DNA of 62,503 bases, counting the filler. It is 8 parts of 8 records of this genome, joined end to end, with 100 filler letters (N's around TTAATTAATTAA, not from the genome) between each part and the next. Parts side by side here need not be neighbours in the genome. Positions count along the whole stretch, not along the records: positions 51,087 to 58,008 come from SRR20825010_701; 7 more parts are not named here. The stretch is one strand, 5' to 3'. Below the pieces are notes generated by a model. The model made no database searches, was not told the origin of the DNA, and saw only the letters and a list, made by a program, of their open reading frames with translations. How positions within the stretch are numbered: position 1 is the first letter of the stretch; each line of letters begins with the position of its first letter. Positions 5,698-62,503 of this stretch are shown in pieces. A program made the position numbers and the translations under genes.

Positions 5698-5797
5698 NNN
5701 NNNNNNNNNNNNNNNNNNNNNNNNNNNNNNNNNNNNNNNNNTTAATTAATTAANNNNNNNNNNNNNNNNNNNNNNNNNNNNNNNNNNNNNNNNNNNN
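5698..5797. other. Artificial contig spacer
   Basis: Ns flanking TTAATTAATTAA (stops in all six frames). Confidence 0.99.
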
Positions 5798-6238
5798 CAC
5801 GGTGATTACCTTGGTTGAGTCAGAAGACTGAACCGTGGCGATCACGTTGCCCGCGTAAATTGGGCGCGTGAATGTGTCAGCGCTTTCAACGCTGATGATG
5901 TCGGAAATTTGTGCAACATCCAGCTTGGCAGCAACACGTGGCAACACGTTTTTTCCCACGCTGGTGGCGGGGGCAAGAATGTGGCCATAGTTGCCAGCAA
6001 TGGCCAGAATTTGCGCGGCAAAATTTTCAGCCAACTGGTCACCCAGTGAATCGGAGTCTGCAACCAGAACCTTGGCCACACCAGCAGCCTTGGCAGCCTG
6101 TTCAGCAGCAGCGCCACAACCTTTGCCGGAAACCAGCACGTGGATGTCGCCACCAATTTTCTGGGCCGCAGCGATGGTATTCAGCGTGGCGGGCTTGATG
6201 CTTTGATTGTCGTGTTCGGCAATAACGAGTACTGACAT
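5798..6238 (-). CDS. etfA: Electron transfer flavoprotein alpha subunit, 5' part
   Basis: MSVLVIAEH, PRVAAKLD, FTRPIYAGN; follows etfB. Confidence 0.95.
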
Positions 6239-6248
6239 TTTTTGCTCC

Positions 6249-6998
6249 TTAGATCACTTTCGCTTCGTTCTTCAGCTTGTCAACCAGCGTGGCCACATCG
6301 GGCACGGTGATACCAGCGGAACGTGTGGGAGGGTCGCTCACTTTCAGGGTTTTGATGCGCGGATCTACATCTACACCCAAGTCAGCAGGCTTGATGGTGT
6401 CAATCTGCTTTTTCTTGGCCTTCATGATGTTCGGCAGTGTCACGTAACGTGGCTCGTTCAGGCGCAAGTCGCTGGTTACTACCGCAGGCAAGCTCAGGCT
6501 GACTGTTTCCAGACCACCATCCACTTCACGGGTTACGTTGACCTTGCCGCCTTCAACCACCACTTTGGATGCGAAGGTGCCTTGTGGCATGTCGGCCAAG
6601 GCAGCCAGCATTTGGCCGGTTTGGTTGCAATCGTCGTCGATGGCTTGCTTGCCCATGATCACCAAATCGATGCCTTCTTTTTCAATGATGGCTTTCAGAA
6701 TTTTGGCAACAGCCAGTGGCTGCAATTCCACATCGGTTTCAACCAGAATGCCGCGATCTGCGCCAATTGCGGCAGCCGTGCGCAAGGTTTCAACACACTG
6801 GGCAACGCCACAACTAACTGCAATCACTTCGGTTGCCACGCCAGCTTCTTTCAGGCGCGTGGCTTCTTCAACAGCGATTTCATCGAAGGGGTTCATGGAC
6901 ATTTTCACGTTGGCGATATCCACACCAGAGCCATCGCTTTTGCAGCGAACTTTAACGTTGTAATCGACTACGCGTTTAACGGGTACCAGGATCTTCAT
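6249..6998 (-). CDS. etfB: Electron transfer flavoprotein beta subunit
   Basis: [39 protein letters not shown]. Confidence 0.97.
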
Positions 6999-7062
6999 GC
7001 AAGCCATCCCTTTGTTGAAATTGGAGAATAGATGATTGGATTATACGAAGCGTTTTGAGAAA

Positions 7063-7082
7063 AAACGCACGATCGTTCGATT
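7063..7082 (-). promoter_or_regulatory. Probable FadP-type (TetR family) operator upstream of etfBA
   Basis: Minus strand AATCGAACGATCGTGCGTTT, palindromic core ACGATCGT; fits the betaproteobacterial FadP consensus as recalled (AATNGWACGAYCGTKCKNWT). Confidence 0.65.
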
Positions 7083-7121
7083 TTTCATAGAGTGTACACT
7101 CTAAGGGGCTTGCTGTCGAGG

Positions 7122-7811
7122 TTATCGGTAGCGGGCGCAGATCGAATTCATGGCCTCGAAACAGCACCGATCAATTTCTTCCCGACTGCGAACCGTGCAA
7201 TTCAGGTCGATGACCCGACCGGTTGACATGCTATACACCAAGCCACTGATCGCAACAGGGTCGCCCCGGCCCCACGCTGCATGGACTGCCGGGCTAAGCG
7301 CTGCCAGCCGAACTTGCTGAATCACATTGAGTTCGCACAGCTTGTCGACATTCCGGTTGGCTTGCTCAAGCGATGCCGGGTTGAAAAGCTGGTGATCGTG
7401 CGCCAGTTCACGCACACCCTCCAGCCAGTCACCAGGCGCACCCCCGGCATGCAAACCCAGCGCTACGCGCACACCACCACAACTGTGATGCCCAAACACC
7501 AACAAGTGCTTCACCTTCAAACTTTCGATTGAAAATTGCAATGCGGTTTGCAAGCTAAGGTCGTTCAAACCAGCCTGATTGGCCACGTTCTTGTACACAA
7601 ACAGTTCACCCAGGTTGCTTTGCAGCAAGGTATTGGGGTCTGCCCGGCTGTCGCAGCAACTGATCACGGTGAACGCCGGGCTTTGTCCCGCGGAAAGCCG
7701 TTTGAAATAGTCAGGGTCTTGCGCAGTAATTTGCCCTGCCCACTCGGCATTGCGTGCCAGCATTTCGGCAAGCCGTTCTTCCGAATAAGGTGCTGGCGTT
7801 GAAAAAATCAT
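7122..7811 (-). CDS. Beta-class carbonic anhydrase
   Basis: Zinc ligands C-x-D-S-R (CCDSR) and H-x-x-C (HHSCGG); LCELNV..QV. Confidence 0.92.
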   Translation of the reverse strand: MIFSTPAPYSEERLAEMLARNAEWAGQITAQDPDYFKRLSAGQSPAFTVISCCDSRADPNTLLQSNLGELFVYKNVANQAGLNDLSLQTALQFSIESLKVKHLLVFGHHSCGGVRVALGLHAGGAPGDWLEGVRELAHDHQLFNPASLEQANRNVDKLCELNVIQQVRLAALSPAVHAAWGRGDPVAISGLVYSMSTGRVIDLNCTVRSREEIDRCCFEAMNSICARYR

Positions 7812-8731
7812 GTTGCGGCCAGCGCCTCCACGTGTGCGTGCACTGAATCAGCCAAGGCTTCCAGCTCATAACCACCTTCCAGCGTGCTGATCAGTTTGCC
7901 GTCGCAGTATTCATCGGCCACGCGAACCAGAAATTTGGTGATCCAGCCATAGTCCTCGGTGGTCAGGGTCATGTCCGCAAGCGGATCACTTTCATGTGCA
8001 TCAAAACCTGCCGACACCAACACCAACTGGGGCTTGAACTGGTCAATGGCATCCACCCAGTGGGTTTGAATGGCATGCTTGATTTCCTCGCGGCCACCGC
8101 CGGGTTGAATCGGACAATTCACCATGTTTCTTGCGCCCTCCAGCCCGCCACTGAATGGGTACAACGGCGATTGAAAGGTGCTGCACATCAAGATTTTCGG
8201 GTTGTTGGCAAACACATGTTCAGTGCCATTGCCGTGGTGCACATCAAAGTCCACAATCAGCACCCGCTCCAGCCGGTAGGCATCAATGGCGTGTTGCGCA
8301 GCAATGGCCACGTTGTTGAACACGCAAAAACCCATGGCACGGTCCACGCAGGCATGATGGCCTGGCGGGCGCACGGCACAAAAGGCATTGTTCACGGCAT
8401 GCGCCATGACCAGGTCAACCGCATGCACGCAGGCACCGGCAGCACGGCGGGCTGCATCAAGCGAGAATTCCGACAAGGTAGTATCGCCGTCAATGTCGAT
8501 GTTTCGCTTCAAGGGAAAACGCGCCTTGATGCTTTCAACATAGGCAGGGGTATGCACGGCAGTGACCGCAGACCACGGCACCTGTGGGGCATCACAATGC
8601 ACCAGCCGTGGCCACAGTTCAGACGATTCAAGCCGATCACGAATGACCCGCAGGCGGGCCATGCTTTCAGGATGACCCAGGCCCGGGTTGTGCAGGGCGC
8701 AATCAGAATGGGAAATAAAGGCAGTGGTCAT
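7808..8731 (-). CDS. Histone deacetylase family protein
   Basis: HPES..RL, VRPPGHHA, DFDVHHGNGT, SAGFDAH, LEGGY. Confidence 0.93.
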   Translation of the reverse strand: MTTAFISHSDCALHNPGLGHPESMARLRVIRDRLESSELWPRLVHCDAPQVPWSAVTAVHTPAYVESIKARFPLKRNIDIDGDTTLSEFSLDAARRAAGACVHAVDLVMAHAVNNAFCAVRPPGHHACVDRAMGFCVFNNVAIAAQHAIDAYRLERVLIVDFDVHHGNGTEHVFANNPKILMCSTFQSPLYPFSGGLEGARNMVNCPIQPGGGREEIKHAIQTHWVDAIDQFKPQLVLVSAGFDAHESDPLADMTLTTEDYGWITKFLVRVADEYCDGKLISTLEGGYELEALADSVHAHVEALAAT

Positions 8732-8845
8732 GGCTTGGGCCCAACAGCATGTAGATGCTGGGTTATAGTGAATGCAGGACCTGCCATTGACTGCGAACAC
8801 GCACCGGGTCGACCTTCTTTACCGCTTACTACGCCTATACCGGAC

Positions 8846-9901
8846 ATGCTGACTCCTTTTTTGACTACTCATCGAATATTCAAATACTTTGCCTCCATTC
8901 TAATCAGCACAGCGCTGTGCACTCAAGCCGTGCAGGCAGAAGACACCAAGCGGGTGAATTTTGCCGACCACGCGCAAGCCATGGCCATGGCCCAGCGCCT
9001 GCAGGAAAAAGAAGGCATTGCAGTGGCGGACACCCTTGCCTTGCTGCAAAAAGCAGAGCTGTTACCCCAGGTGGTACAAGCCGTCAAGCCGCCAAAAACA
9101 AAAGGGGTGCGCAACTGGGACACCTACCGCAACCGTTTTGTAGAACCCTATCGAATTCGAAAAGGTGTGGAATTCTGGAATGAAAATGCCGGAATTCTAA
9201 AAGAAGCCGAGACCAAATATAGTGTTCCACAAGAAGTAATTGTGGCCATCATCGGCGTGGAAACCATTTACGGGCAGCACATTGGCAACTACCGGGTACT
9301 TGATTCACTGGCCACACTGGCCTTTGCCTACCCCGAGGGTCAGAAAGACCGTTCGGAATTTTTCCAGAACGAACTGGAAGCCTTCATTGCCCTGTGCAAC
9401 AAAACACACCTGAATGCACTGGAAGTGAAAGGATCGTATGCTGGCGCCATAGGGCTTGGGCAATTCATGCCCAGTTCATGGACGGCTTATGCAGTAGATG
9501 GGGACGCAGACGGTATTGTAGATTTGTTCAACAGCCGGAAAGACGCCATTTTCAGCGTGGCCAACTTCCTGAAAGTGCATGGCTGGGAAACAGGCAAAGC
9601 CACCCGCGTGCTGGTCGACATTCAACACGCCGACAACCTGACCGAACTGCTGGCCCCCGATATTGTGCCCACCTTCGCCCCCGCCGTGATGCAGGAAAAA
9701 GGCGTGAAGCTTAATGGCAAGGCCCTGCCCGATGAAAAACTGGCACTGATTGAACTGGTGCGTGGCGAGGCCGAGCCTGCGTTTGTGGCTGGCGGGCAAA
9801 ACTTCTATGTGGTGACCCGCTACAACCGAAGTTCTTTCTATGCCAACGCCGTGCTTGAATTGAGCGAAGCGTTGAAGCTAAGAAGGGATATGTTGAACTA
9901 A
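8846..9901 (+). CDS. mltB: Lytic murein transglycosylase B
   Basis: IIGVETIYG, GSYAGAIGLGQFMPSS, EF-hand-like DGDADG, YNRS; start trimmed to MLTPF. Confidence 0.92.
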   Translation: MLTPFLTTHRIFKYFASILISTALCTQAVQAEDTKRVNFADHAQAMAMAQRLQEKEGIAVADTLALLQKAELLPQVVQAVKPPKTKGVRNWDTYRNRFVEPYRIRKGVEFWNENAGILKEAETKYSVPQEVIVAIIGVETIYGQHIGNYRVLDSLATLAFAYPEGQKDRSEFFQNELEAFIALCNKTHLNALEVKGSYAGAIGLGQFMPSSWTAYAVDGDADGIVDLFNSRKDAIFSVANFLKVHGWETGKATRVLVDIQHADNLTELLAPDIVPTFAPAVMQEKGVKLNGKALPDEKLALIELVRGEAEPAFVAGGQNFYVVTRYNRSSFYANAVLELSEALKLRRDMLN

Positions 9902-10758
9902 GCGGGAAACACACCCGTCGACAAATACCGATCACCACGGTCGCACACAATAAACACGATAGTGGCGTTTTCTACTTCCTCTGCAATTTTCAGGGCAATG
10001 TGCGCCGCGCCTGCCGCGGAAATACCGCAGAAAATACCCTCTTCCGCAGCCATTTTGCGTGCCATGTCTTCGGCTTCAAGCTGGGTAACCTGCACCACCC
10101 GGTCAACACCAGCAGGCTTGTAGATCTTGGGCAGGTATTCCTGTGGCCACTTTCGAATTCCTGGAATTTGCGAACCTTCGCTGGGTTCTGCACCAATAAT
10201 TTGCACGTTCGGGTTCTGGCTTTTCAGGTAACGCGACACACCCATAATCGAGCCTGTGGTGCCCATGGCACTTACAAAATGGGTCACTTTGCCGGCGGTA
10301 TCACGCCAAATTTCGGGACCGGTTGTTTCGAAGTGGGCCAGCGGATTGTCCTCGTTGGCAAACTGGTCGAGGATCACGCCCTTGCCCTGATCGCGCATTT
10401 GCTCCGCCAAATCGCGTGCGTATTCCATGCCGCCTTTTTGTGGGGTCAAAATGATTTCCGCGCCAAAGGCACGCATGGTTTGGCGACGTTCAATGCTGAG
10501 GTGTTCAGGCATGATAAGCACCATTCGATACCCGCGAATGGCAGCCGCCATGGCCAGCGCAATGCCTGTGTTCCCAGAGGTTGCTTCAATCAGGGTGTCG
10601 CCAGGCTTGATGGTGCCGCGTTCTTCGGCACGCTTGATCATGGAAATTGCAGGGCGATCCTTGACCGAACCCGCCGGGTTGTTGCCTTCCAGTTTGCCCA
10701 GAATGATATTGCCGCGATCGGCATTGGCCTTGCCCGGCAAACGTTGCAACTGCACCAG
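9898..10758 (-). CDS. cysM: Cysteine synthase B (5' end missing)
   Basis: KLEGNNPAGSVKDR PLP lysine, IPGIRKW, CDRGDRYLSTGVF. Confidence 0.95.
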   Translation of the reverse strand: MVQLQRLPGKANADRGNIILGKLEGNNPAGSVKDRPAISMIKRAEERGTIKPGDTLIEATSGNTGIALAMAAAIRGYRMVLIMPEHLSIERRQTMRAFGAEIILTPQKGGMEYARDLAEQMRDQGKGVILDQFANEDNPLAHFETTGPEIWRDTAGKVTHFVSAMGTTGSIMGVSRYLKSQNPNVQIIGAEPSEGSQIPGIRKWPQEYLPKIYKPAGVDRVVQVTQLEAEDMARKMAAEEGIFCGISAAGAAHIALKIAEEVENATIVFIVCDRGDRYLSTGVFPA

Positions 10759-51086: not shown

Positions 51087-51809
51087 CCAGAACCACCAGC
51101 CACCCCAGCCAAGCTCATAATAGGCCCACCAAGACCCAAGCGCGAGGCCACCGGTGAGGAACATCCACGCCGTCAGCGTCCACGGCCGTACCCAGCGCGC
51201 CCACAGGGGCGTTACCTCGCCCTCAATAAGCGCGGCCACCGCGAATGAGAAAACCACAGAGAGGCCCACATAACCGAGGTATAGCATGGGTGGGTGGAAC
51301 GCGAGGCCGGGGTCCTGCAAAAGCGGGTTCAGGCCGTTGCCTTCCAGCGGGGCCGGATCAAGCCGGGTGAAAGGATTACTGGTGAAAATCACAAACAGCA
51401 GGAAGCCTAGCACCAGCGCGCTTTGCACCGCCAAAACGCGGGAGCGAAAGCGAAACGGCAAACGCTTGCCCTTGACCGAAACGGCGGTACCGAACAGCGT
51501 GAGCACCAGCACCCAGAACATGAGGCTGCCTTCGTGGTTGCCCCATACGCCTGAGATTTTATAGAGCAGCGGCTTCGCGCTGTGGGAGTGGGCCGCAACC
51601 GCGTAGACTGAGAAATCAGAGTTCAGGAAACTATAGGTCAGCGCCGCATAAGCCACCACGGCCATTATGAACTGACCAACAACCGCGTTATCTGCCAAGC
51701 CAATCAAACGCGCATTGCCGCGGGCGAGGCCAAGGTGTGGCACCACGGCACCAAGAAGCGCAAACGCCAGCGCAATCATCAGCGCAAAATGGCCAAGTTC
51801 TGCGATCAT
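51087..51809 (-). CDS. ccmF: Cytochrome c heme lyase CcmF, 5' part
   Basis: [45 protein letters not shown]. Confidence 0.96.
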
Positions 51810-52288
51810 CGGCCGGTTTCCGCCTCATAATCGCTCAAGCCTTCAGGGTGCGTGCAGGCCTCCGCGTTTTTGGGCATGGTGCCCGGCGGGGCGTAGTTTT
51901 CATCATGTTTGGCAAGCACCGTATCGGCAATGAACACACCGTCTGCAGTGAGCGCACCTTCCGTCACCACGCCTTGGCCTTCGCGGAACAGGTCTGGCAG
52001 CAGGCCCCTGAAACGAACAGGGATGTCTGCGGCGCAATCCGTCACCGTGAACCGGTAGGTGAGATCATCACTTTCACGGCCGAAAGACCCCATGGCCACA
52101 AGCCCGCCAAGACGGAAGCGTTTGCCTGCAACTATTTGTTTTTGCTGCACATCGCTAGGCTGAAGGAACAGGCTGAGGCTGTCACCACCAAGCGCGAATA
52201 TCACCAGCAGGATTGCACCCGCGATGGCTGAAACCGCGAGGGACGCGACCACCAGCCGCTGTTTTTTTCGTGTTTTCAAACCTGCCAT
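51806..52288 (-). CDS. ccmE: Heme chaperone CcmE
   Basis: [24 protein letters not shown]; start trimmed to MAGLK. Confidence 0.95.
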
Positions 52289-52289
52289 T

Positions 52290-52451
52290 TTACTTGCTCT
52301 TTTGCCGCTTTGGGCGCTGGCGCTCAACATCCCGCAGGGCCGCCTTGTGGGCGCGCAGGCTTAAAAAGGCGAGCCCGGCCAACGCCAGAAAGGTGACCCC
52401 GTAAGCGGACCATATGAAGATAGCATGTTTGCCCATATCAAGTGTGTCCAC
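52290..52451 (-). CDS. ccmD: Heme exporter protein CcmD
   Basis: Not in the ORF track: (VDTLD)MGKHAIFIWSAYGVTFLALAGLAFLSLRAHKAALRDVERQRPKRQKSK*; start GTG 52451 or ATG 52436; lies between ccmC and ccmE. Confidence 0.9.
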   Translation of the reverse strand: MDTLDMGKHAIFIWSAYGVTFLALAGLAFLSLRAHKAALRDVERQRPKRQKSK

Positions 52452-52470
52452 CCAAAAACCCTGCCTTTTC

Positions 52471-53190
52471 CTACGCTTGCACGACTGCAGCGCGCAGTAC
52501 TGATAGCTTGCGCCGGTTAATTTCCAGTTTCATCCGATAGAGAAACACCACAATAAAATACGCCTTGAAGGCAAGAGCGATGGTGAAGAGAGGCCACAGC
52601 ATCGCGGCGTCAATCGTTGGGCCACCCATGCGCATCACACTTGCGGGCTGATGCAGCGTGTTCCACCAATCCACCGAAAACTTGATGATCGGGATATTCA
52701 CCACACCCACGAGCGCGAGGATAGACGCTGCCCGCCCCCCCTTGTCTTCTTCATCCATCGAACGCCAGATCGCCATATAACCGAGATAGAGGAAAAACAG
52801 CACCAGAACCGAGGTTAACCGCCCGTCCCACACCCAGTAAGTGCCCCACATAGGCTTGCCCCACAGCATGCCGGTGATAAGCGCAAGCGCTGTGAAAGTC
52901 GCACCAATCGGCGCTGCGGCCTTACCGGCCAAAAGCGCGAGCGGATGGCGCCACACAAGGGCTGTGAAGCTCGCCGCTGCCACCACCATATAGCTGAACA
53001 TGGCCATCCAGGCGGCAGGAACATGCACATACATGATGCGTACACTCTGGCCTTGCTGATAGTCTTCAGGGCTCGCAAAAAGCGCCAGATAAAGGCCGTA
53101 AGCAAACGCCAGCACCATCACGATTTTCGCGATGGGCAGGATCTTGTCTGCCAGGCGGTTAAACTGGGCTGGATTGGCGAATCTATGCAT
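52471..53190 (-). CDS. ccmC: Heme exporter protein CcmC
   Basis: YVHVPAAW, WGKPMWGTYWVWD.RLT, WWNTLHQ. Confidence 0.96.
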   Translation of the reverse strand: MHRFANPAQFNRLADKILPIAKIVMVLAFAYGLYLALFASPEDYQQGQSVRIMYVHVPAAWMAMFSYMVVAAASFTALVWRHPLALLAGKAAAPIGATFTALALITGMLWGKPMWGTYWVWDGRLTSVLVLFFLYLGYMAIWRSMDEEDKGGRAASILALVGVVNIPIIKFSVDWWNTLHQPASVMRMGGPTIDAAMLWPLFTIALAFKAYFIVVFLYRMKLEINRRKLSVLRAAVVQA

Positions 53191-53288
53191 GGCCCTTACC
53201 TATCCCGAACCGGGCCGGGCGGCAAGTGCGACGTGATGCCTCAGATGGGCGCTATCACCCCCGAATTTACGCCACACTTTGGCAAAAT

Positions 53289-53353
53289 GTGTGCGCGTTT
53301 CTGCGGCGTATGTGTGGCGTGAGTGTGCGCGTTTTTGTGGCATGGGTGTGGCG
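53289..53353. repeat. Degenerate 31-bp direct repeat in the ccmB-ccmC spacer
   Basis: 53289-53319 versus 53323-53353, 26/31 identical. Confidence 0.65.
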
Positions 53354-53358
53354 CGCCT

Positions 53359-54051
53359 CTACTCGAGCGAAAGCCGGAGCGCAGCAGCCGACGCCACCGG
53401 CCCGATAATGAGCGAAACAAGCGTCACCGCCCCCAGAAAAGCAAGGTGCGGATATGGGTCTGTCATGCCCGCCGCCGCATCAATCGCACCAACGCCAAAA
53501 ATCAGCGTCGGCACATAAAGCGGCAGCACGAGAAGCGACATCAGCACCCCGCCCCGGCGCACGGAAACCGTCAGCGCCGCACCAACACTGCCAATCAAGC
53601 TAAGCGCAGGTGTGCCGATAAGAAGCGACAGCACCAGCATGCCAAACGCGTCCACAGATAAGTTCATCAGCATGCCAAGAACGGGGGAAAGCAGCACCAG
53701 CGGCAGCACGGTGGCCACCCAGTGCGCGAGAATTTTTGCCGCCGCCACCCCAAAAAGCCCGAGCGGCGAAAGCGCGAGGTCTTCAAGGCTGCCGTCTTCA
53801 AAATCAGCCTGATACAGCCGATCGAGCGACAACAGGGTCGCGAGCAGCGCCACCACCCAGATCACCCCGGCGGCAATACGCGCCAGCACTTGCGGCTCCG
53901 GCCCCACCCCGAAAGGGAACAGCGTCACGGCGATGAGGAAAAAGCTGAGCGCCATGGTGCCGGTCCCGCCCTGCGACCATGCGAGCCGGATATCCCGCGC
54001 GCAAACACTTTTGAAGATGCCCATCAGGCCCGCACTCATGCCGCCGCTCAT
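53359..54051 (-). CDS. ccmB: Heme exporter protein CcmB
   Basis: LFPFGVG, D.EDGSLE, K..AHW, LPL.VP.LIFG; ATG overlaps the ccmA stop. Confidence 0.94.
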   Translation of the reverse strand: MSGGMSAGLMGIFKSVCARDIRLAWSQGGTGTMALSFFLIAVTLFPFGVGPEPQVLARIAAGVIWVVALLATLLSLDRLYQADFEDGSLEDLALSPLGLFGVAAAKILAHWVATVLPLVLLSPVLGMLMNLSVDAFGMLVLSLLIGTPALSLIGSVGAALTVSVRRGGVLMSLLVLPLYVPTLIFGVGAIDAAAGMTDPYPHLAFLGAVTLVSLIIGPVASAAALRLSLE

Positions 54052-54734
54052 GCCCACATCTCCTCATCCACAGAGATTTTGGGTTGATAGTCTTTGAGGT
54101 TCAGCTCTGTCCCCAAAACCGCAATCGGGTCATGGGTCGCGGCAACAATCATGCCGCCACGGCCAAGGTGCCCCGCCATCAGGCGCTCAAGCGCCTCGCG
54201 GTTTGCACTATCAAGCCCAACGGTAGGCTCATCCATCAGCCAAAGCGGGCGGTGCACCAGCGTAAAGCGCATCAGGCTGGCGCGGTGTTTTTGCCCGCTT
54301 GAGAAAAACCGCGCGGGCTGGTCCAGAAGCCGGGTGAGGTCAAACACTGCTGCAGCCTCATGGGCTGCATCATCGCTCAGGCTCCTGCCGGTCATCAGCT
54401 TTACATAGTATTCTGCGTGTTCCCGAAGCGTCAGCACGGGTTTGAGTGCATTCTCATGGCCCGCGTATATCACCGCCTCTTCCGCGGCGGCGCTGCCCGG
54501 CCGCCAAACACTCTCACCAAACTTCAAGGTGCCTGCGCATGCTGGCGTCAGCCCGGCAATCAGCCGCAACAGAGTTGATTTCCCGGTGCCGTTCGGCCCG
54601 CGCAAGTAAAGCAGCCCGCCACTTTCTAGGCTGAAGGAAAGCCCTTCAAACACGCGCCTGCCACCCCGCGTACACGCGAGGTTTAACCCCATGAGGGCTT
54701 TCTTGTCATAATCCGGGCTATGGGCATCAGTCAT
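54048..54734 (-). CDS. ccmA: Heme ABC exporter ATP-binding protein CcmA
   Basis: GPNGTGKST, GH.NALK..LT, SSGQ, W.MDEP, ATH. Confidence 0.92.
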   Translation of the reverse strand: MTDAHSPDYDKKALMGLNLACTRGGRRVFEGLSFSLESGGLLYLRGPNGTGKSTLLRLIAGLTPACAGTLKFGESVWRPGSAAAEEAVIYAGHENALKPVLTLREHAEYYVKLMTGRSLSDDAAHEAAAVFDLTRLLDQPARFFSSGQKHRASLMRFTLVHRPLWLMDEPTVGLDSANREALERLMAGHLGRGGMIVAATHDPIAVLGTELNLKDYQPKISVDEEMWA

Positions 54735-54899
54735 GGCGGCAACGCTAGCCAATCGCCTGAGATAGCTCAAGAAAAACCGGTGGGCTGGCCAAAGCCGCGA
54801 CACTATGAACCAGCGTAAAAACAGGCGCGAGGATCAGTGCGCTGCTTCTCAATGCCACATACATGCCCTATATATATGCTTAAGGTTGTTAACAGCACG

Positions 54900-54936
54900 A
54901 TTGAGTTCACACTAGAATTCAAAATTGAGTTCACAC
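54900..54936. repeat. 12-bp-period direct repeats upstream of the cls-like gene
   Basis: ATTGAGTTCACAC at 54900 and 54924 with degenerate CTAGAATTCAAA between. Confidence 0.65.
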
Positions 54937-54946
54937 AGGTGCCCGC

Positions 54947-56422
54947 ATGGGCCCTTGGGGGAATATGGACCTGAACGGCACCATATGGCCTGATGGCCTT
55001 TTGATCGCGGGCTTTGTATTTCTGGCGCAAATCTACGCCAGCGTGCATGTGCTCAGAACCCGCGATGATGTGCGCGCCGCCGTCGCCTGGATCGGGCTTT
55101 TGTGGCTCGCGCCCGTTTTTGGCCTCATCTTCTATATGCTGTTTGGCGTGAACCGTATCGAGCGGCAAGCCAAACGCGCCCGCGCCCGCCGCGGCCTGCC
55201 CGCTCGCCGGGACATGATCAGCGATCCTGACGGCCCTTCAATGCTGGATGCAAACCCCGATACACCGCACCGCTGGCAGGCGCACGCGCGCCTCGCGGGT
55301 CGGGTAACGGGCCTTCCCATCACGCTGGGTAACCGCATCACCCCGCTTGAAGGCGGCCGCAAGGCGTATGACGCCATGGTGGACGCCATCGACAAGGCCG
55401 AGCATACAGTTGCACTCACCACCTATATCTTTCAGGCCGACCAGGCCGGCAGGCGCTTTATTGCAGCCCTTGTGCGGGCGCATGAGCGCGGGGTCAAGGT
55501 GCGGGTGCTGGTGGATGCGGTTGGCAACCTTTATGGGCTCAAACCGGTTTCAAACCTGCTCCGGCGCAAGGGCATCAAGGTCGCCACCTTCAACCCGGCC
55601 CGGCTTTCATGGCGGCTGGCGTTTTTCAACCTGCGCACCCACCGCAAGCTTCTGGTGGTGGACGGCTTCAAGGGTTTTGCGGGTGGCATGAACATTCGCA
55701 AACATCACCTGGAGCGGGAGGACGGCACCCCTCGCGTGCGCGACACCCATTTCGCGCTTGAGGGGCCGATTGTGACCCAGATGATGGACGCCTTCACTGA
55801 CGACTGGGCCTTCTCTGCCAAGGAAGAGCTGGACGAAGACACATGGCTGCCCACCGTGGGCGCCACCGGCCCCGGCGTGATCGCGCGTGCCGTACCCGAC
55901 GGGCCGGATGAGCCGCGCCAGCGCTCCGCCATGATCATGGAATCGGCGCTCACGAGCGCGCGGAACCGCGTGCGTATCATCACGCCCTATTTCATTCCGG
56001 AGCAGGCGCTGATTGTGGGCCTCAAGCAAGCAGCCCTCAGGGGCGTGCAGGTGGATATCATTGTGCCCGCAAAAAACAACCTGCCGTTTTTCATGCTCAC
56101 GGCGCTGTCGGGCGCGCGGCAACTGGTGGAAGCAGGCTGTCACCTCTACCTTTCACCACCACCGTTTGACCATACCAAGCTGATGATTGTGGATGAAGAC
56201 TGGGTGTTTTTCGGCTCCTCGAACTGGGACGCACGCTCCCTGAAGCTGAACTTTGAATTTAACCTTGAGTGTTATGACGCTGGTTTCGCCCGCACCATGA
56301 CCGATTGGGTGAAGGACCGCACAGACGCGGCGTTAGAGATGACGCGCGAGGACTTCCGCACCCGCCCGCGCCTGCACCGCGCCATAGGCCGCCTGCTGTG
56401 GCTCACCAGCCCTTATTTGTGA
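54947..56422 (+). CDS. Cardiolipin synthase (phospholipase D family)
   Basis: Two N-terminal TMs; HKD motifs HRKLLVVD and HTKLMIVD; start 54947 or 54965. Confidence 0.92.
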   Translation: MGPWGNMDLNGTIWPDGLLIAGFVFLAQIYASVHVLRTRDDVRAAVAWIGLLWLAPVFGLIFYMLFGVNRIERQAKRARARRGLPARRDMISDPDGPSMLDANPDTPHRWQAHARLAGRVTGLPITLGNRITPLEGGRKAYDAMVDAIDKAEHTVALTTYIFQADQAGRRFIAALVRAHERGVKVRVLVDAVGNLYGLKPVSNLLRRKGIKVATFNPARLSWRLAFFNLRTHRKLLVVDGFKGFAGGMNIRKHHLEREDGTPRVRDTHFALEGPIVTQMMDAFTDDWAFSAKEELDEDTWLPTVGATGPGVIARAVPDGPDEPRQRSAMIMESALTSARNRVRIITPYFIPEQALIVGLKQAALRGVQVDIIVPAKNNLPFFMLTALSGARQLVEAGCHLYLSPPPFDHTKLMIVDEDWVFFGSSNWDARSLKLNFEFNLECYDAGFARTMTDWVKDRTDAALEMTREDFRTRPRLHRAIGRLLWLTSPYL

Positions 56423-56449
56423 AATAGCCAAGCCAATTGATGTCGGTGA

Positions 56450-56476
56450 CTGGACTCCCGCCTTCGCGGGAGTGAC
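56450..56476 (-). repeat. CGTC-type REP / dRS3-like palindrome, copy 1
   Basis: Minus strand GTCACTCCCGC-GAAG-GCGGGAGTCCAG; identical to copy 3. Confidence 0.9.
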
Positions 56477-56585
56477 AATGTTCTCAATCGGCCCCCACGC
56501 TTCAACCAGATGGGCGGCTTAACATGTATGGCTGAAAAGCCTGAGAACCCATCATTCCCACACACCCAAGACCGCACCTTTAAGT

Positions 56586-56656
56586 TTCGTCATTTCCGCC
56601 CCTGTTCGTCATTCCCGCCCCTGTTAGTCATTCCCGCCCCTGTTAGTCATTCCCGC
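56586..56656 (+). repeat. 19-bp tandem repeat of REP left halves
   Basis: TTCGTCATTTCCGCCCCTG, TTCGTCATTCCCGCCCCTG, TTAGTCATTCCCGCCCCTG, then TTAGTCATTCCCGC continuing into copy 2. Confidence 0.9.
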
Positions 56657-56672
56657 GAAGGCGGGAATCCAG
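56646..56672 (+). repeat. CGTC-type REP / dRS3-like palindrome, copy 2
   Basis: GTCATTCCCGC-GAAG-GCGGGAATCCAG; contains ATTCCC-N8-GGGAAT. Confidence 0.9.
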
Positions 56673-56714
56673 AATTTCGTTGATTTCAAGCTAAGTTTTA
56701 CTCACGCTCACCAC

Positions 56715-57008
56715 ATGCAGAAGTCAGGTTTTGTCTATATTCTGGCATCGGAAAAGAACGGTACGCTCTACATTGGTGTGACGTCCGACCTTGTCCGGCG
56801 CATCTATGAGCACAGAACAGACGCCGCGTCAGGTTTCACCAAACGATACGGTGTTAAAATGCTGGTTCATTTCGAACAGTTTAAGGCCATGCCTGCCGCG
56901 ATAACGCGGGAAAAGCAGCTCAAGAAATGGAACAGGGCCTGGAAACTATGGCTTATTGAAGAAGAAAACCCCGATTGGTTCGACCTCTTTGATAAAATCG
57001 CTTCATAG
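56715..57008 (+). CDS. Stand-alone GIY-YIG nuclease family protein (97 aa)
   Basis: FVYILAS..NGTLYIGVT.DL.RR..EH, FT.RY, AI.REKQLK.W.R.WK..LIE..NP.W.DL. Confidence 0.93.
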   Translation: MQKSGFVYILASEKNGTLYIGVTSDLVRRIYEHRTDAASGFTKRYGVKMLVHFEQFKAMPAAITREKQLKKWNRAWKLWLIEEENPDWFDLFDKIAS

Positions 57009-57031
57009 CCAGCCCCACTGTAACCACTGAT

Positions 57032-57059
57032 CTGGACTCCCGCCTTCGCGGGAGTGACG
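57032..57059 (-). repeat. CGTC-type REP / dRS3-like palindrome, copy 3 (full CGTC tag)
   Basis: Minus strand CGTCACTCCCGC-GAAG-GCGGGAGTCCAG. Confidence 0.9.
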
Positions 57060-57125
57060 ACCTACTGTGCATTACTGGTAGTGCCTATTGAATTGGTCAT
57101 CCGCAAAAGCAGAAATCCAAAAAAC

Positions 57126-57644
57126 CTACCCCTCTTTCGGCAGGTATTTGGGCATGCGGTCCTTGATCTCGGCCTTGAGCCCTTCCTCCAGCCCCAGCAT
57201 GAAAAGCACCTCGGCGATGAGGAAGGAGGGGGCCATGAAAATCTGCAAGAGGTTATCAAACAGCGCCGGTTTGCGGCCTTCATATTTGTGGCCCCAGAAC
57301 TGGATGATCCAACCGATGATGAAAAGGGCGAGGAAAGCCTTGAGCGGCACACCATCTCCCATCGCGGCAATCATGGCGGCGGCATACATCAGCGCGCCGT
57401 ATAGAAGCACCGCAATGGTGCCCACCAGCGGCGCGGCGATAATGTAAAACAGCAGCAGCACACCCATGAGGATATTGGCCAGCGTGAAGGTGCCCGCCTC
57501 CAGTGTGATCACCGGCACGGTTGAGGCGATGATCAGCACGGAAAACACAATCATCGGCACGCCAACATGGTGCGTTGCCTGATTGCGGCCATCCCTGTGG
57601 TAAGCCGAATACATGGCCATCTGCTCATAAAACCAGTTTTTCAT
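57126..57644 (-). CDS. Mpo1-like (DUF962) membrane protein
   Basis: Y..YH....N...H..GVP, GWI.QF.GH..EGRKPAL.DNL.Q....P. Confidence 0.88.
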   Translation of the reverse strand: MKNWFYEQMAMYSAYHRDGRNQATHHVGVPMIVFSVLIIASTVPVITLEAGTFTLANILMGVLLLFYIIAAPLVGTIAVLLYGALMYAAAMIAAMGDGVPLKAFLALFIIGWIIQFWGHKYEGRKPALFDNLLQIFMAPSFLIAEVLFMLGLEEGLKAEIKDRMPKYLPKEG

Positions 57645-57786
57645 GGGTTTTCCCTCCCGATACGTGCCCTGAGAATTAAAGTGGACTGACGAGTCTTTAA
57701 AATCAAGCCGTGAAAAGCTGCGCCCGCGCTTTCCCGCATGGCGTTTGGGCCTATCTAACGCGGGAAGGCATCAAGGGAGACCCACC

Positions 57787-58008
57787 ATGGCAGTTTATGA
57801 GACCATCACACTCACACGGGAAGGCAGTGCCGCGATCCTGACGCTGAACCGGCCGGATAATATGAATGCTTTCACCCCCACCATGGCGCGGGAGCTGGAA
57901 GCGGTGTGCGATGTGGTGGATACGGATGACAGCATCCGCGCACTTATTGTCACCGGTGCCGGGCGTGCGTTTTGTGCGGGCATGGACCTCTCCGCCAGCG
58001 GTAACGTA
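57787..58008 (+). CDS. Enoyl-CoA hydratase/isomerase family protein, 5' fragment
   Basis: LTLNRPD.MNAF, TGAGRAFCAG.DL. Confidence 0.9.
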
Positions 58009-58108: not shown

Positions 58109-59298
58109 GGTTTCTGGAAGCGCCTTATGCCAATATCAAAACCCAGTTGCTGATTTTGTTTTTATTGGCCGTGGGCGCGGCCATGGTGCTGGGCGCCATG
58201 ATGGTGGTGCGTTTAACGTCGGGTATTTTTTATCCACTGCGGCGCATGAACTACATCATGAGTTTGCAGGAGAAGGGCGATGCGGCGGCCCGTGTGGGCG
58301 ATCTTCGGCGTGAAGATGAATTTGCAGACCTGGCCAATCACTTCGATGTGCTACTGGATCAACTGGACGCACGCCGCAGTGAGTTGCTGGGGTTGAATGA
58401 AGAGCTGGATGAGCGCGTGCGCCAACGCACAGCGGATCTTCAGGCAGTTAACCAAAAACTGCATCAGGCAGTGGAACAATTACTGGCCTCGGAAAAACTG
58501 GCGGCAATGGGTCAGCTGACAGCCGGTATTGCGCATGAATTCAACAATCCACTGGCTATCATGATGGGGCATCTGGATTTGATTCGTATCACCCTGAACG
58601 ACCCCGAAAGCATGAAAACCTTGCGCCTGCTCGATGAACAGGTACACCGCATGCGCAATATTGTTCAAAAGCTGCTGCAGTTTTGCCGGCCCGATGAATA
58701 TGCCTCCTACACTGAAGAAGTGAATGTGAGCGACGTGATTCAGGACAGCATTCTTTTCGTGCGCAGCGAAATAGAGGCGGCGCGTGCGCAGCTTAAACTG
58801 GAATTCAATGCGCGCGAAACCGTACAGATCAGCAAAACCGAGTTGCAGCAGGTTATGGTGAATTTGTTGATCAATGCCACGCATGCGCTTGAAGGGCCAT
58901 TTCATGAGCAGGCTGCAGTGCTGGACGAACCGCCGTTGATCTTTGTTGAAACACGCGACATTGCATTGGCAGATGGTCAAAAAGCAGTCAGTATTCGGGT
59001 GCAAAATAACGGTGAGCCGATTGCTCCCGAACGCTTGCAGCTTATTTTTAAAATGTTCTACACCACCAAGCATGCTGGCAAAGGCACTGGGCTTGGTCTG
59101 CCGGTTTCGCGCATGCTGGTGCAACGGTATGGTGGCGACTTGCATGCCAAAAGCCCGGTTGTGCCGGAAAACGCACCGCAATTTGGTGCGTGTTTCGAGA
59201 TTGTTTTGCGCTGCAAGGCCCGCCCATCGGCCGATATTTTGAAAGAAACTGGTCAGCAGATTTTGTTGATCGAGAAGCAACTGTCAGAAGGAAGTTGA
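58109..59298 (+). CDS. HAMP-domain sensor histidine kinase, 5' end missing
   Basis: TM plus HAMP, EKLAAMGQLTAGIAHEFNNPL, NLLINA, FYTTK..GKGTGLGL. Confidence 0.92.
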
Positions 59299-59299
59299 A

Positions 59300-59800
59300 G
59301 TGCCCAAGGTTTTTGGATTTGCCGGTTTTTCCGGCGTGGGTAAAACCACATTGATTGAACAGCTGCTGCCCATCTTGATCGGGGAGGGTGTTCGTGTGTC
59401 CGTCATCAAGCACGCCCATCACGACTTCGACATCGACCGCCCCGGCAAGGATTCTTATCGGCATCGCGAAGCTGGTGCCTATGAAGTGCTGATTACCGCC
59501 AACAAGCGCTGGGTGTTGATGCATGAATTGCGCGACGAGGTTGAGCCCACACTCGAGGAACAGTTGAGCAAGCTCTCGCCCTGCGACCTGGTGATTGTGG
59601 AAGGCTTCAAGCGGGCAGACATTCCAAAAATTGAAATTTGGCGGGAAGCCAATGGCAAGCCCATGTTGCACCCCCAAGACCCCAACATTGTGGCGGTGGC
59701 CTGCGACACGGCGATCGAATGCCGTGGTTTGCCCACCTTGCCCTTGAACGACCCTGCATCTATAGCGCAGTTTATTTTGAAACGGTTTGTGAATGGTTGA
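59300..59800 (+). CDS. mobB: Molybdopterin-guanine dinucleotide biosynthesis protein B
   Basis: G.SG.GKTTLIE, IKHAHHDFDID.PGKDS, VEGFK. Confidence 0.95.
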   Translation: MPKVFGFAGFSGVGKTTLIEQLLPILIGEGVRVSVIKHAHHDFDIDRPGKDSYRHREAGAYEVLITANKRWVLMHELRDEVEPTLEEQLSKLSPCDLVIVEGFKRADIPKIEIWREANGKPMLHPQDPNIVAVACDTAIECRGLPTLPLNDPASIAQFILKRFVNG

Positions 59801-61013
59801 ACTCAATGACCTGCTTGCGCAGGTGTGGCCTTTGGCTGCAAGCAATACGCCGGGAACTGACACAGTGACCCTGAATGCGGCCTTGGGGCGCGTGGTGGCC
59901 AGGGATGTGTTTTCTCAACTGAATGTGCCGCAGCACGACAACAGCGGCATGGATGGTTACGCTGTTCGCTGCGCAGACCTTGCCAAAGGTGTGCAGTTTG
60001 CCGTGTCGCAACGCGTACCGGCAGGTACGTCGCCATTGCCTTTGCAGGCAGGCACCGTGGCAAGAATTTTTACGGGCGCCCCCATTCCTTCGGGTGCAGA
60101 TGCTGTGGTGATGCAGGAAGATGCCAGTGTGCTGGCCGATGGCCTTGTCACCTTCAGTGCTGCACCCACGCCCAATCAATGGATACGCCGTGCTGGCGAA
60201 GACATTGCAAGCGGGCAGGTGGTTGTGCCGAAAGGCACGGTGCTGGACGCTGTTCATGTGGGTTTGCTGGCGTCTATCGGTGTTGATCGTGTGGAAGTGG
60301 TCAAACGCCTGAAAGTGGGTGTGATGGTGACCGGCAGCGAGCTGCAAAACCCAGGCAAGGCCCTGGAAGCAGGGCAAATTTACAATTCCAATGAATTTGT
60401 GTGGTGTGGCCTATTGAAAGCCATGAATATTGAAGTGGAGTCGGTGGGTATTGTGGCCGACAACTTTGAGGCCACATGCAATGCGCTTGAAAGCCTGGCG
60501 CAATGTGATGCGGTGATCAGTTCCGGCGGTGTGTCTGTGGGTGAAGAAGACCACGTGAAACCCGCCATCGAAAAAGTGGGGGAATTGCGCGCGTGGAAAG
60601 TGGCCATGAAGCCGGGCAAACCCATTGCCTTTGGCCACATCAATCGCAAAGGCGGCGGGCAAAGCTGGTTTTTTGGTTTGCCTGGCAACCCGGTGTCCAG
60701 CGCCTTGGCCTTTCAGTTAATCGTGAAGCCTTTTCTTGGGTTGTTGCAGGGGCAAAGCACGCGGCAAGTGGACTGGCGTTTGCGCATGCATCCGGTAAAA
60801 GCCGATTTTGCATGGGCCAAGCCCGATACACGCCGTGAAGAGTTTTTGCGGGTGGATGTACAATCTGGGTGTGCAGGCCTGTTTCCCAACCAAAGTTCGG
60901 GCGTGTTGACATCGCTTGCGCAGTCCAGCGGTTTGGTGCGTCTGGCCAAAGGCCAGGTGGTTGCCCCCGGGGATGTGCTGAATTATGTGTCGTATCAGGA
61001 CTTGATGAAATGA
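59793..61013 (+). CDS. moeA: Molybdopterin molybdotransferase
   Basis: NS.MDGYA, RIFTGAP, SSGGVSVGEED, MKPGKP, GLPGNPVS. Confidence 0.96.
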   Translation: MVELNDLLAQVWPLAASNTPGTDTVTLNAALGRVVARDVFSQLNVPQHDNSGMDGYAVRCADLAKGVQFAVSQRVPAGTSPLPLQAGTVARIFTGAPIPSGADAVVMQEDASVLADGLVTFSAAPTPNQWIRRAGEDIASGQVVVPKGTVLDAVHVGLLASIGVDRVEVVKRLKVGVMVTGSELQNPGKALEAGQIYNSNEFVWCGLLKAMNIEVESVGIVADNFEATCNALESLAQCDAVISSGGVSVGEEDHVKPAIEKVGELRAWKVAMKPGKPIAFGHINRKGGGQSWFFGLPGNPVSSALAFQLIVKPFLGLLQGQSTRQVDWRLRMHPVKADFAWAKPDTRREEFLRVDVQSGCAGLFPNQSSGVLTSLAQSSGLVRLAKGQVVAPGDVLNYVSYQDLMK

Positions 61014-61267
61014 ATGTGAAGGTGCGGTTTTTTGCCAGTTTAAAAGAACAGTTCGGGCGTGACAGCGTGGTGGTAAATGCCCCTTTCGCACCCGCCACCG
61101 TGGCGGGTTTGCGCCAGCATCTTTGTGAGCAGCACCCCGGTTTTGCCAAAGCCATTGCCGAAGTAGGGCGCCTGCGCGCGGCGGTGAATCAAGACATGGC
61201 CGACGACGACACCCCCGTGGATGAGCAGGCCGAAGTGGCGTTTTTTCCACCGGTGACAGGGGGCTGA
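61010..61267 (+). CDS. moaD: Molybdopterin synthase sulfur carrier subunit
   Basis: V.FFASLKE, EVAFFPPVTGG C-terminus; start trimmed to MNVKV. Confidence 0.95.
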   Translation: MNVKVRFFASLKEQFGRDSVVVNAPFAPATVAGLRQHLCEQHPGFAKAIAEVGRLRAAVNQDMADDDTPVDEQAEVAFFPPVTGG

Positions 61268-61735
61268 ATGTTGCGTTCCAAAGTACAGGTGCAAGAAGCA
61301 GATTTTGACGTGTCCAGCGAAATTCGCTGGCTACGGGAAGGCTTGCCCGAAATTGGTGCGGTCGCTACTTTCATTGGCACCGTTCGGGACATCAACGAAA
61401 ACAGCACCGTGCGGGCCATGACCCTGGAACACTATCCGGGTATGACCGAAAAAGCCCTGGAAAACATTCTGAAAGTGGCCGATGAGCGGTTTGAAATTAC
61501 CTCTGCCATGATCATTCACCGCGTGGGTCCTTTGTACCCCGAGGATCAAATCGTGTTTGCAGCGGCCACCAGTGAGCATCGTCAACAGGCTTTTCTGGCC
61601 TGTGAATTCATCATGGATTATTTGAAAACCGAGGCACCTTTCTGGAAGAAGGAAGACACCCCGGAGGGCGCACGCTGGGTGTCGGCCCGCGACAGTGACG
61701 ATTCTGCCAAAGAACGCTGGGAGAAGGCCGATTGA
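61268..61735 (+). CDS. moaE: Molybdopterin synthase catalytic subunit
   Basis: GAVATF.G.VR, LEHYPGMT, HRVG, MDYLKT.APFWKKE. Confidence 0.96.
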   Translation: MLRSKVQVQEADFDVSSEIRWLREGLPEIGAVATFIGTVRDINENSTVRAMTLEHYPGMTEKALENILKVADERFEITSAMIIHRVGPLYPEDQIVFAAATSEHRQQAFLACEFIMDYLKTEAPFWKKEDTPEGARWVSARDSDDSAKERWEKAD

Positions 61736-62115
61736 ACGCACTCAATGCCTTGGCGGTATTTGTGGGTGCGGGCCTGGGTGGCGTGGGTCGCTATGGTTTG
61801 GGCGTGGTGCTGGCACAACCAGGTTGGTTGCCATTTGCTGTGGGTACCCTGGCTGTCAACCTGATTGGTGGTTTTTTGGCGGGCGCCCTGTTCGCAGCGC
61901 TGGGCCCGGTTTGGTTGAAAACGAACCCCATTGGTTTGTTCCTGATGACAGGCGTGCTGGGCGGATTGACCACGTTTTCAGCCTTTACCGCAGAAGGTGC
62001 CAACCTGTTGCTTGATAAACCCTTGTTGGCGTTGGGCCACGCGGCTGCCCATGTGCTGGGTTGTTTGGCCGCATTTGTTGTTGCGGGCAAGCTGTTTCAT
62101 TTTTTCGCACAATAA
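61732..62115 (+). CDS. crcB: Fluoride efflux channel Fluc
   Basis: GAG.G...RY, GTL.VNL.G, G.LGGLTTFS.F..E. Confidence 0.9.
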   Translation: MNALNALAVFVGAGLGGVGRYGLGVVLAQPGWLPFAVGTLAVNLIGGFLAGALFAALGPVWLKTNPIGLFLMTGVLGGLTTFSAFTAEGANLLLDKPLLALGHAAAHVLGCLAAFVVAGKLFHFFAQ

Positions 62116-62140
62116 ACCTGTCGATATCTTGTCCAGATGA

Positions 62141-62503
62141 TCAGTGTTTTTGACGTTTGGTAGCGGGCTCGATAAACCCCATGGGAACATCAAATATGGG
62201 AAAAAAGGCGGTAATTTTGTAGGGGGTGGTTTGAATTTTTTCGCCGATTTTTGCTCCCGAGCGGGCCAGTAACGAGGTCACCTCACCGGCCGTGTATCCG
62301 CCTTCGCCAATCAAATTCAACAAGTGATGTTTATTCTGAATCAAACCGAGAACGGCTTGTTCCACGTTGGCTTTGCCACCGTGCAGCATGCGGGAAATAT
62401 TTCTTGCCGAGAATTTCCCCTTGCCGATTAGTTCATGCAGGGCGTTTTTGTGCATGTGCAACGCTTGAACGGCCTGACCCAGACTGGCTCCACTACCATA
62501 TAA
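62141..62503 (-). CDS. 3' end of a protein with 39-aa tandem helical repeats
   Basis: Frame is open to the window end; two full 39-aa units and a degenerate third align. Confidence 0.65.
   Translation of the reverse strand, partial: LYGSGASLGQAVQALHMHKNALHELIGKGKFSARNISRMLHGGKANVEQAVLGLIQNKHHLLNLIGEGGYTAGEVTSLLARSGAKIGEKIQTTPYKITAFFPIFDVPMGFIEPATKRQKH

Follow-up and report, generated by a model that had tools for sequence, protein, structure and literature searches.

A probable Ssn-family GIY-YIG nuclease gene with CGTC-type hairpins in Kordiimonas, and one-sided half-copies of its hairpin

Ssn proteins (cd10448) are encoded by small single-domain GIY-YIG genes that are flanked by a hairpin repeat, the NTS, across bacteria. 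According to the main text of the describing paper, the NTS is found on one side of 71% of these genes and on both sides of 42% (Chenal et al., 2025, Nat Commun 16:2388; PMC11893778). Four Ssn homologues bind single-stranded DNA in a strand- and sequence-specific manner and cut it 5' of the hairpin, and activity is lost when the stem sequence is changed with the hairpin kept (PMC11893778). The Neisseria enzyme SsnA (NMV_0044/NMB0047) released a 20-nt product from an oligonucleotide in which the G of the tag is base 26 (PMC11893778), so the cut lies 5 nt before GTC. Transformation of Neisseria by NTS-bearing DNA is lowered by Ssn, which is the sole biological role demonstrated in that text. The NTS-ssnA-NTS layout was discussed there as IS-like, and an analogy with REP/RAYT systems was put as a hypothesis. 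The genome table of the same paper places ssnA homologues in two of nine Kordiimonas species (K. marina and K. lipolytica) by most criteria. No later work on Ssn mobility was found in the literature searched. The hairpins belong to a second line of description, the CGTC-1 REP family, which is the same as Neisseria dRS3 and Rickettsia RPE-6 (Di Nocera et al., 2013; PMC3733652). CGTC-1 REPs are common between convergent genes, and no associated protein is named for them in the available text of that paper.

The window, that is, the whole stretch of DNA analysed here, is 62,503 nt long and consists of eight fragments separated by N spacers at 5698, 10759, 31663, 37264, 47361, 50987, and 58009. 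The ssn unit lies in the fragment 51087-58008, of which 52715-58008 is 100% identical to locus L003 in a Kordiimonas sp. MAG chromosome (G002). The fragments 58109-62503 and 5798-10758 have a similar tetranucleotide make-up, unlike the remaining fragments, pointing to mixed sources. The following features were assigned at the locus.

54947..56422, plus strand: cls-like neighbour (PLD/cardiolipin-synthase-like, just below the TIGR04265 cut-off), a host gene outside the unit.
56450..56476, minus strand: NTS/SRM (CGTC-1 REP) copy 1, 27 bp, tag pointing to copy 2.
56589..56645, plus strand: tandem array of three 19-bp units immediately before copy 2, each consisting of tag and left arm (11 nt) and an 8-nt spacer.
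56646..56672, plus strand: NTS/SRM copy 2, 27 bp, differing from the published NTS consensus at one position, 42 nt 5' of the ATG.
56715..57008, plus strand: ssn gene, encoding a predicted 97-aa single-domain GIY-YIG nuclease (ORF and Pfam match).
57032..57058, minus strand: NTS/SRM copy 3, 27 bp, equal to copy 1, 23 nt 3' of the stop codon.
57126..57644, minus strand: Mpo1-like neighbour, a host gene outside the unit, which abuts cls directly in nine relatives.

The cls-like and Mpo1-like genes are convergent around the ssn unit, and an SRM is present within 500 bp on both sides of the ssn gene. Each hairpin copy has an 8-bp stem and a 4-nt loop, with folding z scores from -3.3 to -4.3. The features that define CGTC-1 REPs are present, namely a tag of the (C/T)GTC kind, an 8-bp stem starting with A, a 4-nt loop, and a CCA tail. 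Copies 1 and 3 are identical, and copy 2 deviates from them at two mutually paired stem positions, copies 1 and 3 having a C:G pair in place of T:A. The base before the GTC tag is T, A, and C across the three copies. The 27-bp hairpin has just three matches at up to three mismatches in the whole window (none in 100 shuffles), and the matches to the published SRM pattern in the whole window are these three copies alone. The original prediction, made from the letters of the window, had described three 27-bp palindromes, their orientations, and the paired two-base difference exactly as found here, and had placed a 97-aa GIY-YIG ORF between convergent cls-like and Mpo1-like genes, which is also borne out. 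The three 19-bp tandem units before copy 2 were not mentioned in it.

Several minor observations concern the same interval. A further, decayed half-copy lies at 56551-56561, 38 nt (two periods) 5' of the first 19-bp unit. Within 56680-56714, G002 and the related genome G014 share an identical stretch of 12 nt, the end of which lies 6 nt 5' of the ATG. A TTGA lies 17 nt 5' of the last six bases of this stretch, and there is no obvious ribosome-binding site. The 12-nt stretch and the TTGA are possibly a leaderless promoter upstream of ssn; the promoter scan returned no sigma-70 site at the threshold of the scanner. The Rfam search gave only two matches, both sub-threshold and both to the Francisella sRNA FtrB, at 56621-56699 and 56993-57087 (over copies 2 and 3). 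The FtrB family may contain an NTS-like hairpin.

The 97-aa protein matches the Pfam GIY-YIG domain (PF01541) over residues 5-77 with an E value of 9e-16. A single GIY-YIG domain in a protein of less than 150 aa agrees with the size range of the Ssn family. The protein shares 69–70% identity over 90 columns (E ≤ 3e-37) with three 94-aa Neisseria proteins, which were taken as SsnA since their genes contain both ssnA primers of PMC11893778 exactly. The strict definition of SsnA homology (E < 1e-10, more than 75% of the length, 60% identity) also applies. In an ungapped register, Y8, Y19, and E66 correspond to the catalytic SsnA residues Y6, Y17, and E64. From these comparisons, the gene most probably encodes an Ssn-family nuclease, with the hairpins as its recognition sites (probability about 0.9). 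The ssn unit is an additional member of the Ssn system described in 2025. The novelty that the original prediction attached to a CGTC hairpin-nuclease unit does not stand, as the pairing, the layout, and the REP/RAYT analogy are already in PMC11893778.

Other assignments were tried and rejected. RAYT/REPtron membership calls for an HUH Y1 transposase and GTAG REPs, and the gene here is GIY-YIG only. A GIY-YIG homing endonuclease of the I-TevI type is represented by TIGR01453, which gave 23 bits vs. a cut-off of 56 and covered residues 5-39 only, and the gene is intergenic. A transposon or IS with terminal inverted repeats was rejected on a single copy in G002, variable layouts across homologue loci, and no target duplication by inspection. 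The PDB sequence matches were 1ywl and 1zg2 only, with E values of 1.5e-4 and 2.6e-4, both from UPF0213. The UPF0213 (YazA/Slx1-like) GIY-YIG proteins belong to the same small fold family but are distant. The second GIY-YIG gene of G002, 39% identical, has no hairpin of the CGTC-1 type within 1.5 kb.

The unit here and the Ssn/NTS system have in common a GIY-YIG protein of about 95 aa, the catalytic residues, the hairpin, and the NTS-gene-NTS layout. As a difference from the published system, the host is free-living and marine and carries just 11 hairpin copies. Tandem 5' half-copies are found here and are also visible in the oligonucleotides NTS2, NTS3, NTS5, and NTS_Dlyk of PMC11893778. The hairpins resemble CGTC-1 REPs in tag, 8-bp stem, 4-nt loop, CCA tail, and position between convergent genes, whereas copies 1 and 2 form a tags-inward dimer, an arrangement termed rare in the available text of PMC3733652. 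The REPtron/RAYT (TnpA-REP) system of GTAG REPs is similar in having one resident gene flanked by its hairpins, with orphan hairpins elsewhere, and in the cut 5' of a tagged hairpin in single-stranded DNA, which for ssn here is suggested by analogy. RAYT, however, is an HUH tyrosine transposase working with a GTAG tag, whereas Ssn is a GIY-YIG hydrolase with another tag. To our knowledge, no strand-transfer chemistry is known for Ssn, unlike RAYT.

The association of gene and hairpin was examined at homologue loci, in genomes, and on a protein tree. The homologue loci were the best 80 of at least 547, the ssn locus of the window included, and 64 of them had 500 bp on both sides. An SRM was found within 500 bp in 48 of the 64 loci, on both sides in 27. 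Motif density was 1.78/kb within 500 bp of the 80 homologues vs. 0.086/kb beyond 1 kb (about 20-fold), and among these best 80 loci the enrichment spans homologues from many phyla. A survey of 301 genomes of the order, with kinship ignored and many genomes incomplete, gave an exact hairpin copy in 90 of 155 genomes with an ssn hit vs. 27 of 146 without, and 29 of the 31 genomes with at least ten exact copies have an ssn gene. Among the 155 ssn-positive genomes, 65 lack an exact copy, in a count that covers the CGTC-type hairpin of the locus alone; conversely, one genome (G037) gave no ssn hit despite its 47 exact copies. The length class of the hairpin required 14 changes on a 93-protein tree vs. 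24.7 after shuffling (0/500 as low), on a quick, poorly resolved tree of those 93 of 107 proteins that have a hairpin nearby, with labels from a loose finder without chance control. The gene-hairpin association is real, as published, because the motif is enriched near homologues, gene and hairpin co-occur genome-wide, and the hairpin class clusters on the protein tree. The original prediction had proposed that gene and hairpins belong together and had named as checks the flanking enrichment around homologues, repeat type against protein phylogeny, and copy counts with and without the gene; these came out in its favor. Its proposal that the nuclease recognizes and nicks the hairpins is supported by analogy, as relatives bind and cut there (PMC11893778). 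The Slx1-style structure-specific recognition that it had mentioned is contradicted by the loss of activity of the relatives on stem changes.

The history of the cls-mpo1 site was followed in 41 related genomes, 24 of which gave an mpo1 locus and 15 of which have cls in the same locus. The junction is empty (3–95 nt) in nine of the 15 relatives and holds about 1.3 kb of other DNA in two. G010 and G015 have a decayed hairpin doublet at the junction and lack the ssn gene, and the full ssn unit is present in G002 and G014. The nearest genome, G001, has neither the locus nor the motif, in keeping with a window made up of joined pieces. A nine-gene tree gave the topology ((G002,G014),((G010,G015),G020)), in which G020 and the outgroups are empty at the junction. 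As judged from this pattern, the ssn unit was gained at the junction in this lineage, because G020 and the outgroups are empty. The hairpin doublet may have had either one origin or two. Between G002 and G014, ssn has a dS of 0.62 (0.44–0.58 for the three nearest genes) and a dN/dS of 0.135. Since dS is neighbor-like and dN/dS is low, the gene has been resident, vertically inherited, and under purifying selection since the split of the two genomes. G002 has 11 hairpin copies and one ssn gene, and ten of the 11 copies have a G014 counterpart, therefore there has been little recent spread.

A further ssn gene is present in G014 (65% identity), with one doublet of a different, longer-loop hairpin on each side of it (L224:1325-1944). 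This 620-bp block is absent in G002, G010, and G015, and unrelated DNA of about 685 bp is found in G020. Gain and loss of ssn genes thus do occur, at a slow pace, without fixed ends or visible target duplications. No contig joint deleting ssn at the locus was found in the contigs of four runs; the joints listed in these runs have sides of 22–27 nt and other spacers and belong to other doublets.

The 19-bp tandem units led to a wider pattern of one-sided half-copies. The own 5' half of the hairpin is repeated 14–23 nt upstream in 21 of 211 distinct copies, and the 3' half downstream in 0 of 211. By set, 5' half-copies were found in 15/165, 7/49, and 6/42 (Neisseria) copies, with no mirror case. 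Among 1283 exact copies in the 301 genomes, which include 41 already examined for half-copies, the 5' pattern was matched 29 times, in 19 genomes, and the mirror pattern never. In the enriched set of 46 cases, the half is 10–15 nt long and mostly ends at the loop edge (11 nt in 20/46), and the spacer is 7–12 nt in 42/46. The spacer and the DNA preceding the half agree at 2.9 of 5 positions vs. 1.7 after permutation (0/10,000), a similarity that multi-half arrays inflate. Half-copies sit on the side where SsnA cuts. Term searches of the main text of PMC11893778 and of PMC3733652 and PMC1797815, together with literature searches among open-access texts, gave no description of them. In Neisseria arrays (L209), some halves that precede a full copy begin with tail-side letters rather than with the tag, as though an exchange had taken place at the shared stem.

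By the preferred explanation, the protein, like Neisseria SsnA, would bind hairpins whose tagged strand is single-stranded, and would cut a short distance 5' of the GTC tag, as the four relatives do. A Kordiimonas sub-lineage acquired the unit between cls and mpo1 and has kept it there. The ssn gene has remained single, conserved, and vertically inherited, much as domesticated RAYT genes do, and the rest of the genome carries a small, stable set of hairpins. Its everyday action is likely the cutting of hairpin-bearing single-stranded DNA, such as incoming DNA, gaps, or extruded hairpins, and repair of Ssn cuts may remodel the tag-side DNA. Half-copies could arise when a cut leaves a 3' end that is extended through the flank and left arm and then re-joined to the displaced 5' end.

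Three other readings bear on these data. One of them adds to the main explanation and is possible but rather doubtful: Ssn also mobilizes CGTC REPs. Host repair synthesis would start from the Ssn cut on the 5' side of the hairpin, run through the flank and left arm, and be followed by a re-joining step that duplicates hairpin DNA, with half-copies as the traces left behind and the gene itself traveling as a cassette bounded by hairpins. The strict one-sidedness of the half-copies, including those in Neisseria, their usual end at the loop edge, and the likeness of the spacer to the DNA 5' of the half favor it. So do the lengths at the locus, where the tag-side segments changed between G002 and G014 (169/37 and 67/17 nt) and the tail-side segments did not (27/29, 42/42, and 23/23 nt), with the 19-bp tandem absent in G014, and the second ssn gene of G014 with its other hairpin type in a block missing from the relatives. 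However, other shared sites showed no general tag-side hypervariability, the duplicated flank is mostly 8–10 nt compared with a cut 5 nt before the tag, exact duplications of at least 8 nt make up only 6/46 cases, and arrays inflate the similarity test. The half-copy rate is alike with and without a detected ssn gene (26/1153 vs. 3/130 copies), a comparison of low power. The sharing of ten of the 11 G002 copies with G014 and the lack of target duplications by inspection also speak against mobilization. GIY-YIG enzymes, moreover, hydrolyze DNA with no covalent intermediate. We therefore put forward only tentatively that 5' half-copies across several phyla are footprints of Ssn cutting, host fill-in, and re-joining, by which a hydrolytic nuclease generates and spreads CGTC REPs and also mobilizes its own gene, with no transposase involved. 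Spreading of the hairpins by the enzyme, which the original prediction had suggested, is no more than a candidate role, as are their creation and the movement of its own gene.

An active mobile element, whether a miniature transposon or a homing element, in which copies 2 and 3 would serve as terminal inverted repeats, is unlikely. The empty site in relatives, the G+C content of ssn below its neighbors (48% vs. 62% in cls), and up to nine ssn-like genes per genome in the 301-genome survey agree with it, as does the strand bias around homologues, where upstream copies are mostly plus (47:15) and downstream copies mostly minus (26:46). The likeness to terminal inverted repeats in the original prediction holds as far as a tags-outward nearest pair recurs, but it does so in only 15 of 64 homologue loci, at variable distances. 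The single copy in G002, the same position with neighbor-like dS in G014, and the absence of a joint removing the gene in the four runs argue against a transposon, and the DNA-binding extension of intron homing enzymes is absent. Less probable still is that the hairpins are ordinary REP RNA/DNA elements at convergent 3' ends, with the nuclease gene there by chance and the 19-bp tandem due to replication slippage. CGTC-1 REPs are indeed commonly found in such positions (PMC3733652), G010 and G015 have a doublet at the junction without the gene, and slippage accounts for further units once two exist. The enrichment of about 20-fold around homologues from many phyla, however, largely refutes a chance association; the second ssn gene of G014 has its own different hairpin; and binding and cleavage are published for relatives (PMC11893778). 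Both strands fold almost equally under the model used, and symmetric slippage does not readily give 29 vs. 0.

With the nuclease read as a resident Ssn enzyme, the locus adds one Ssn-hairpin pair to the thousands catalogued. Whether Ssn makes or moves its repeats is the open question after the 2025 paper, and the one-sided half-duplications are a countable, testable signature for repeat generation by Ssn. The filled and empty sites in sister Kordiimonas genomes offer a natural time series.

Other hairpins in these genomes gave further minor observations. Copies 1 and 3 are identical within G002 and also within G014 (L097:1004-1030 and 1454-1480), with a loop base that differs between the genomes, which suggests conversion between these direct repeats. 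The hairpin doublets of G028 and G037 mostly combine two different stem variants, G037 having 62 copies and no ssn hit. In G002, a catalase-peroxidase gene is flanked by direct copies of a hairpin doublet, one on each side (L225:2794-5650, G002:C1:330793-333650). G014 has one doublet and lacks the catalase-peroxidase gene (L220), and the gene is present with no hairpins of this kind in G010, G015, and G020, an arrangement consistent with loss of the gene by recombination between doublets.
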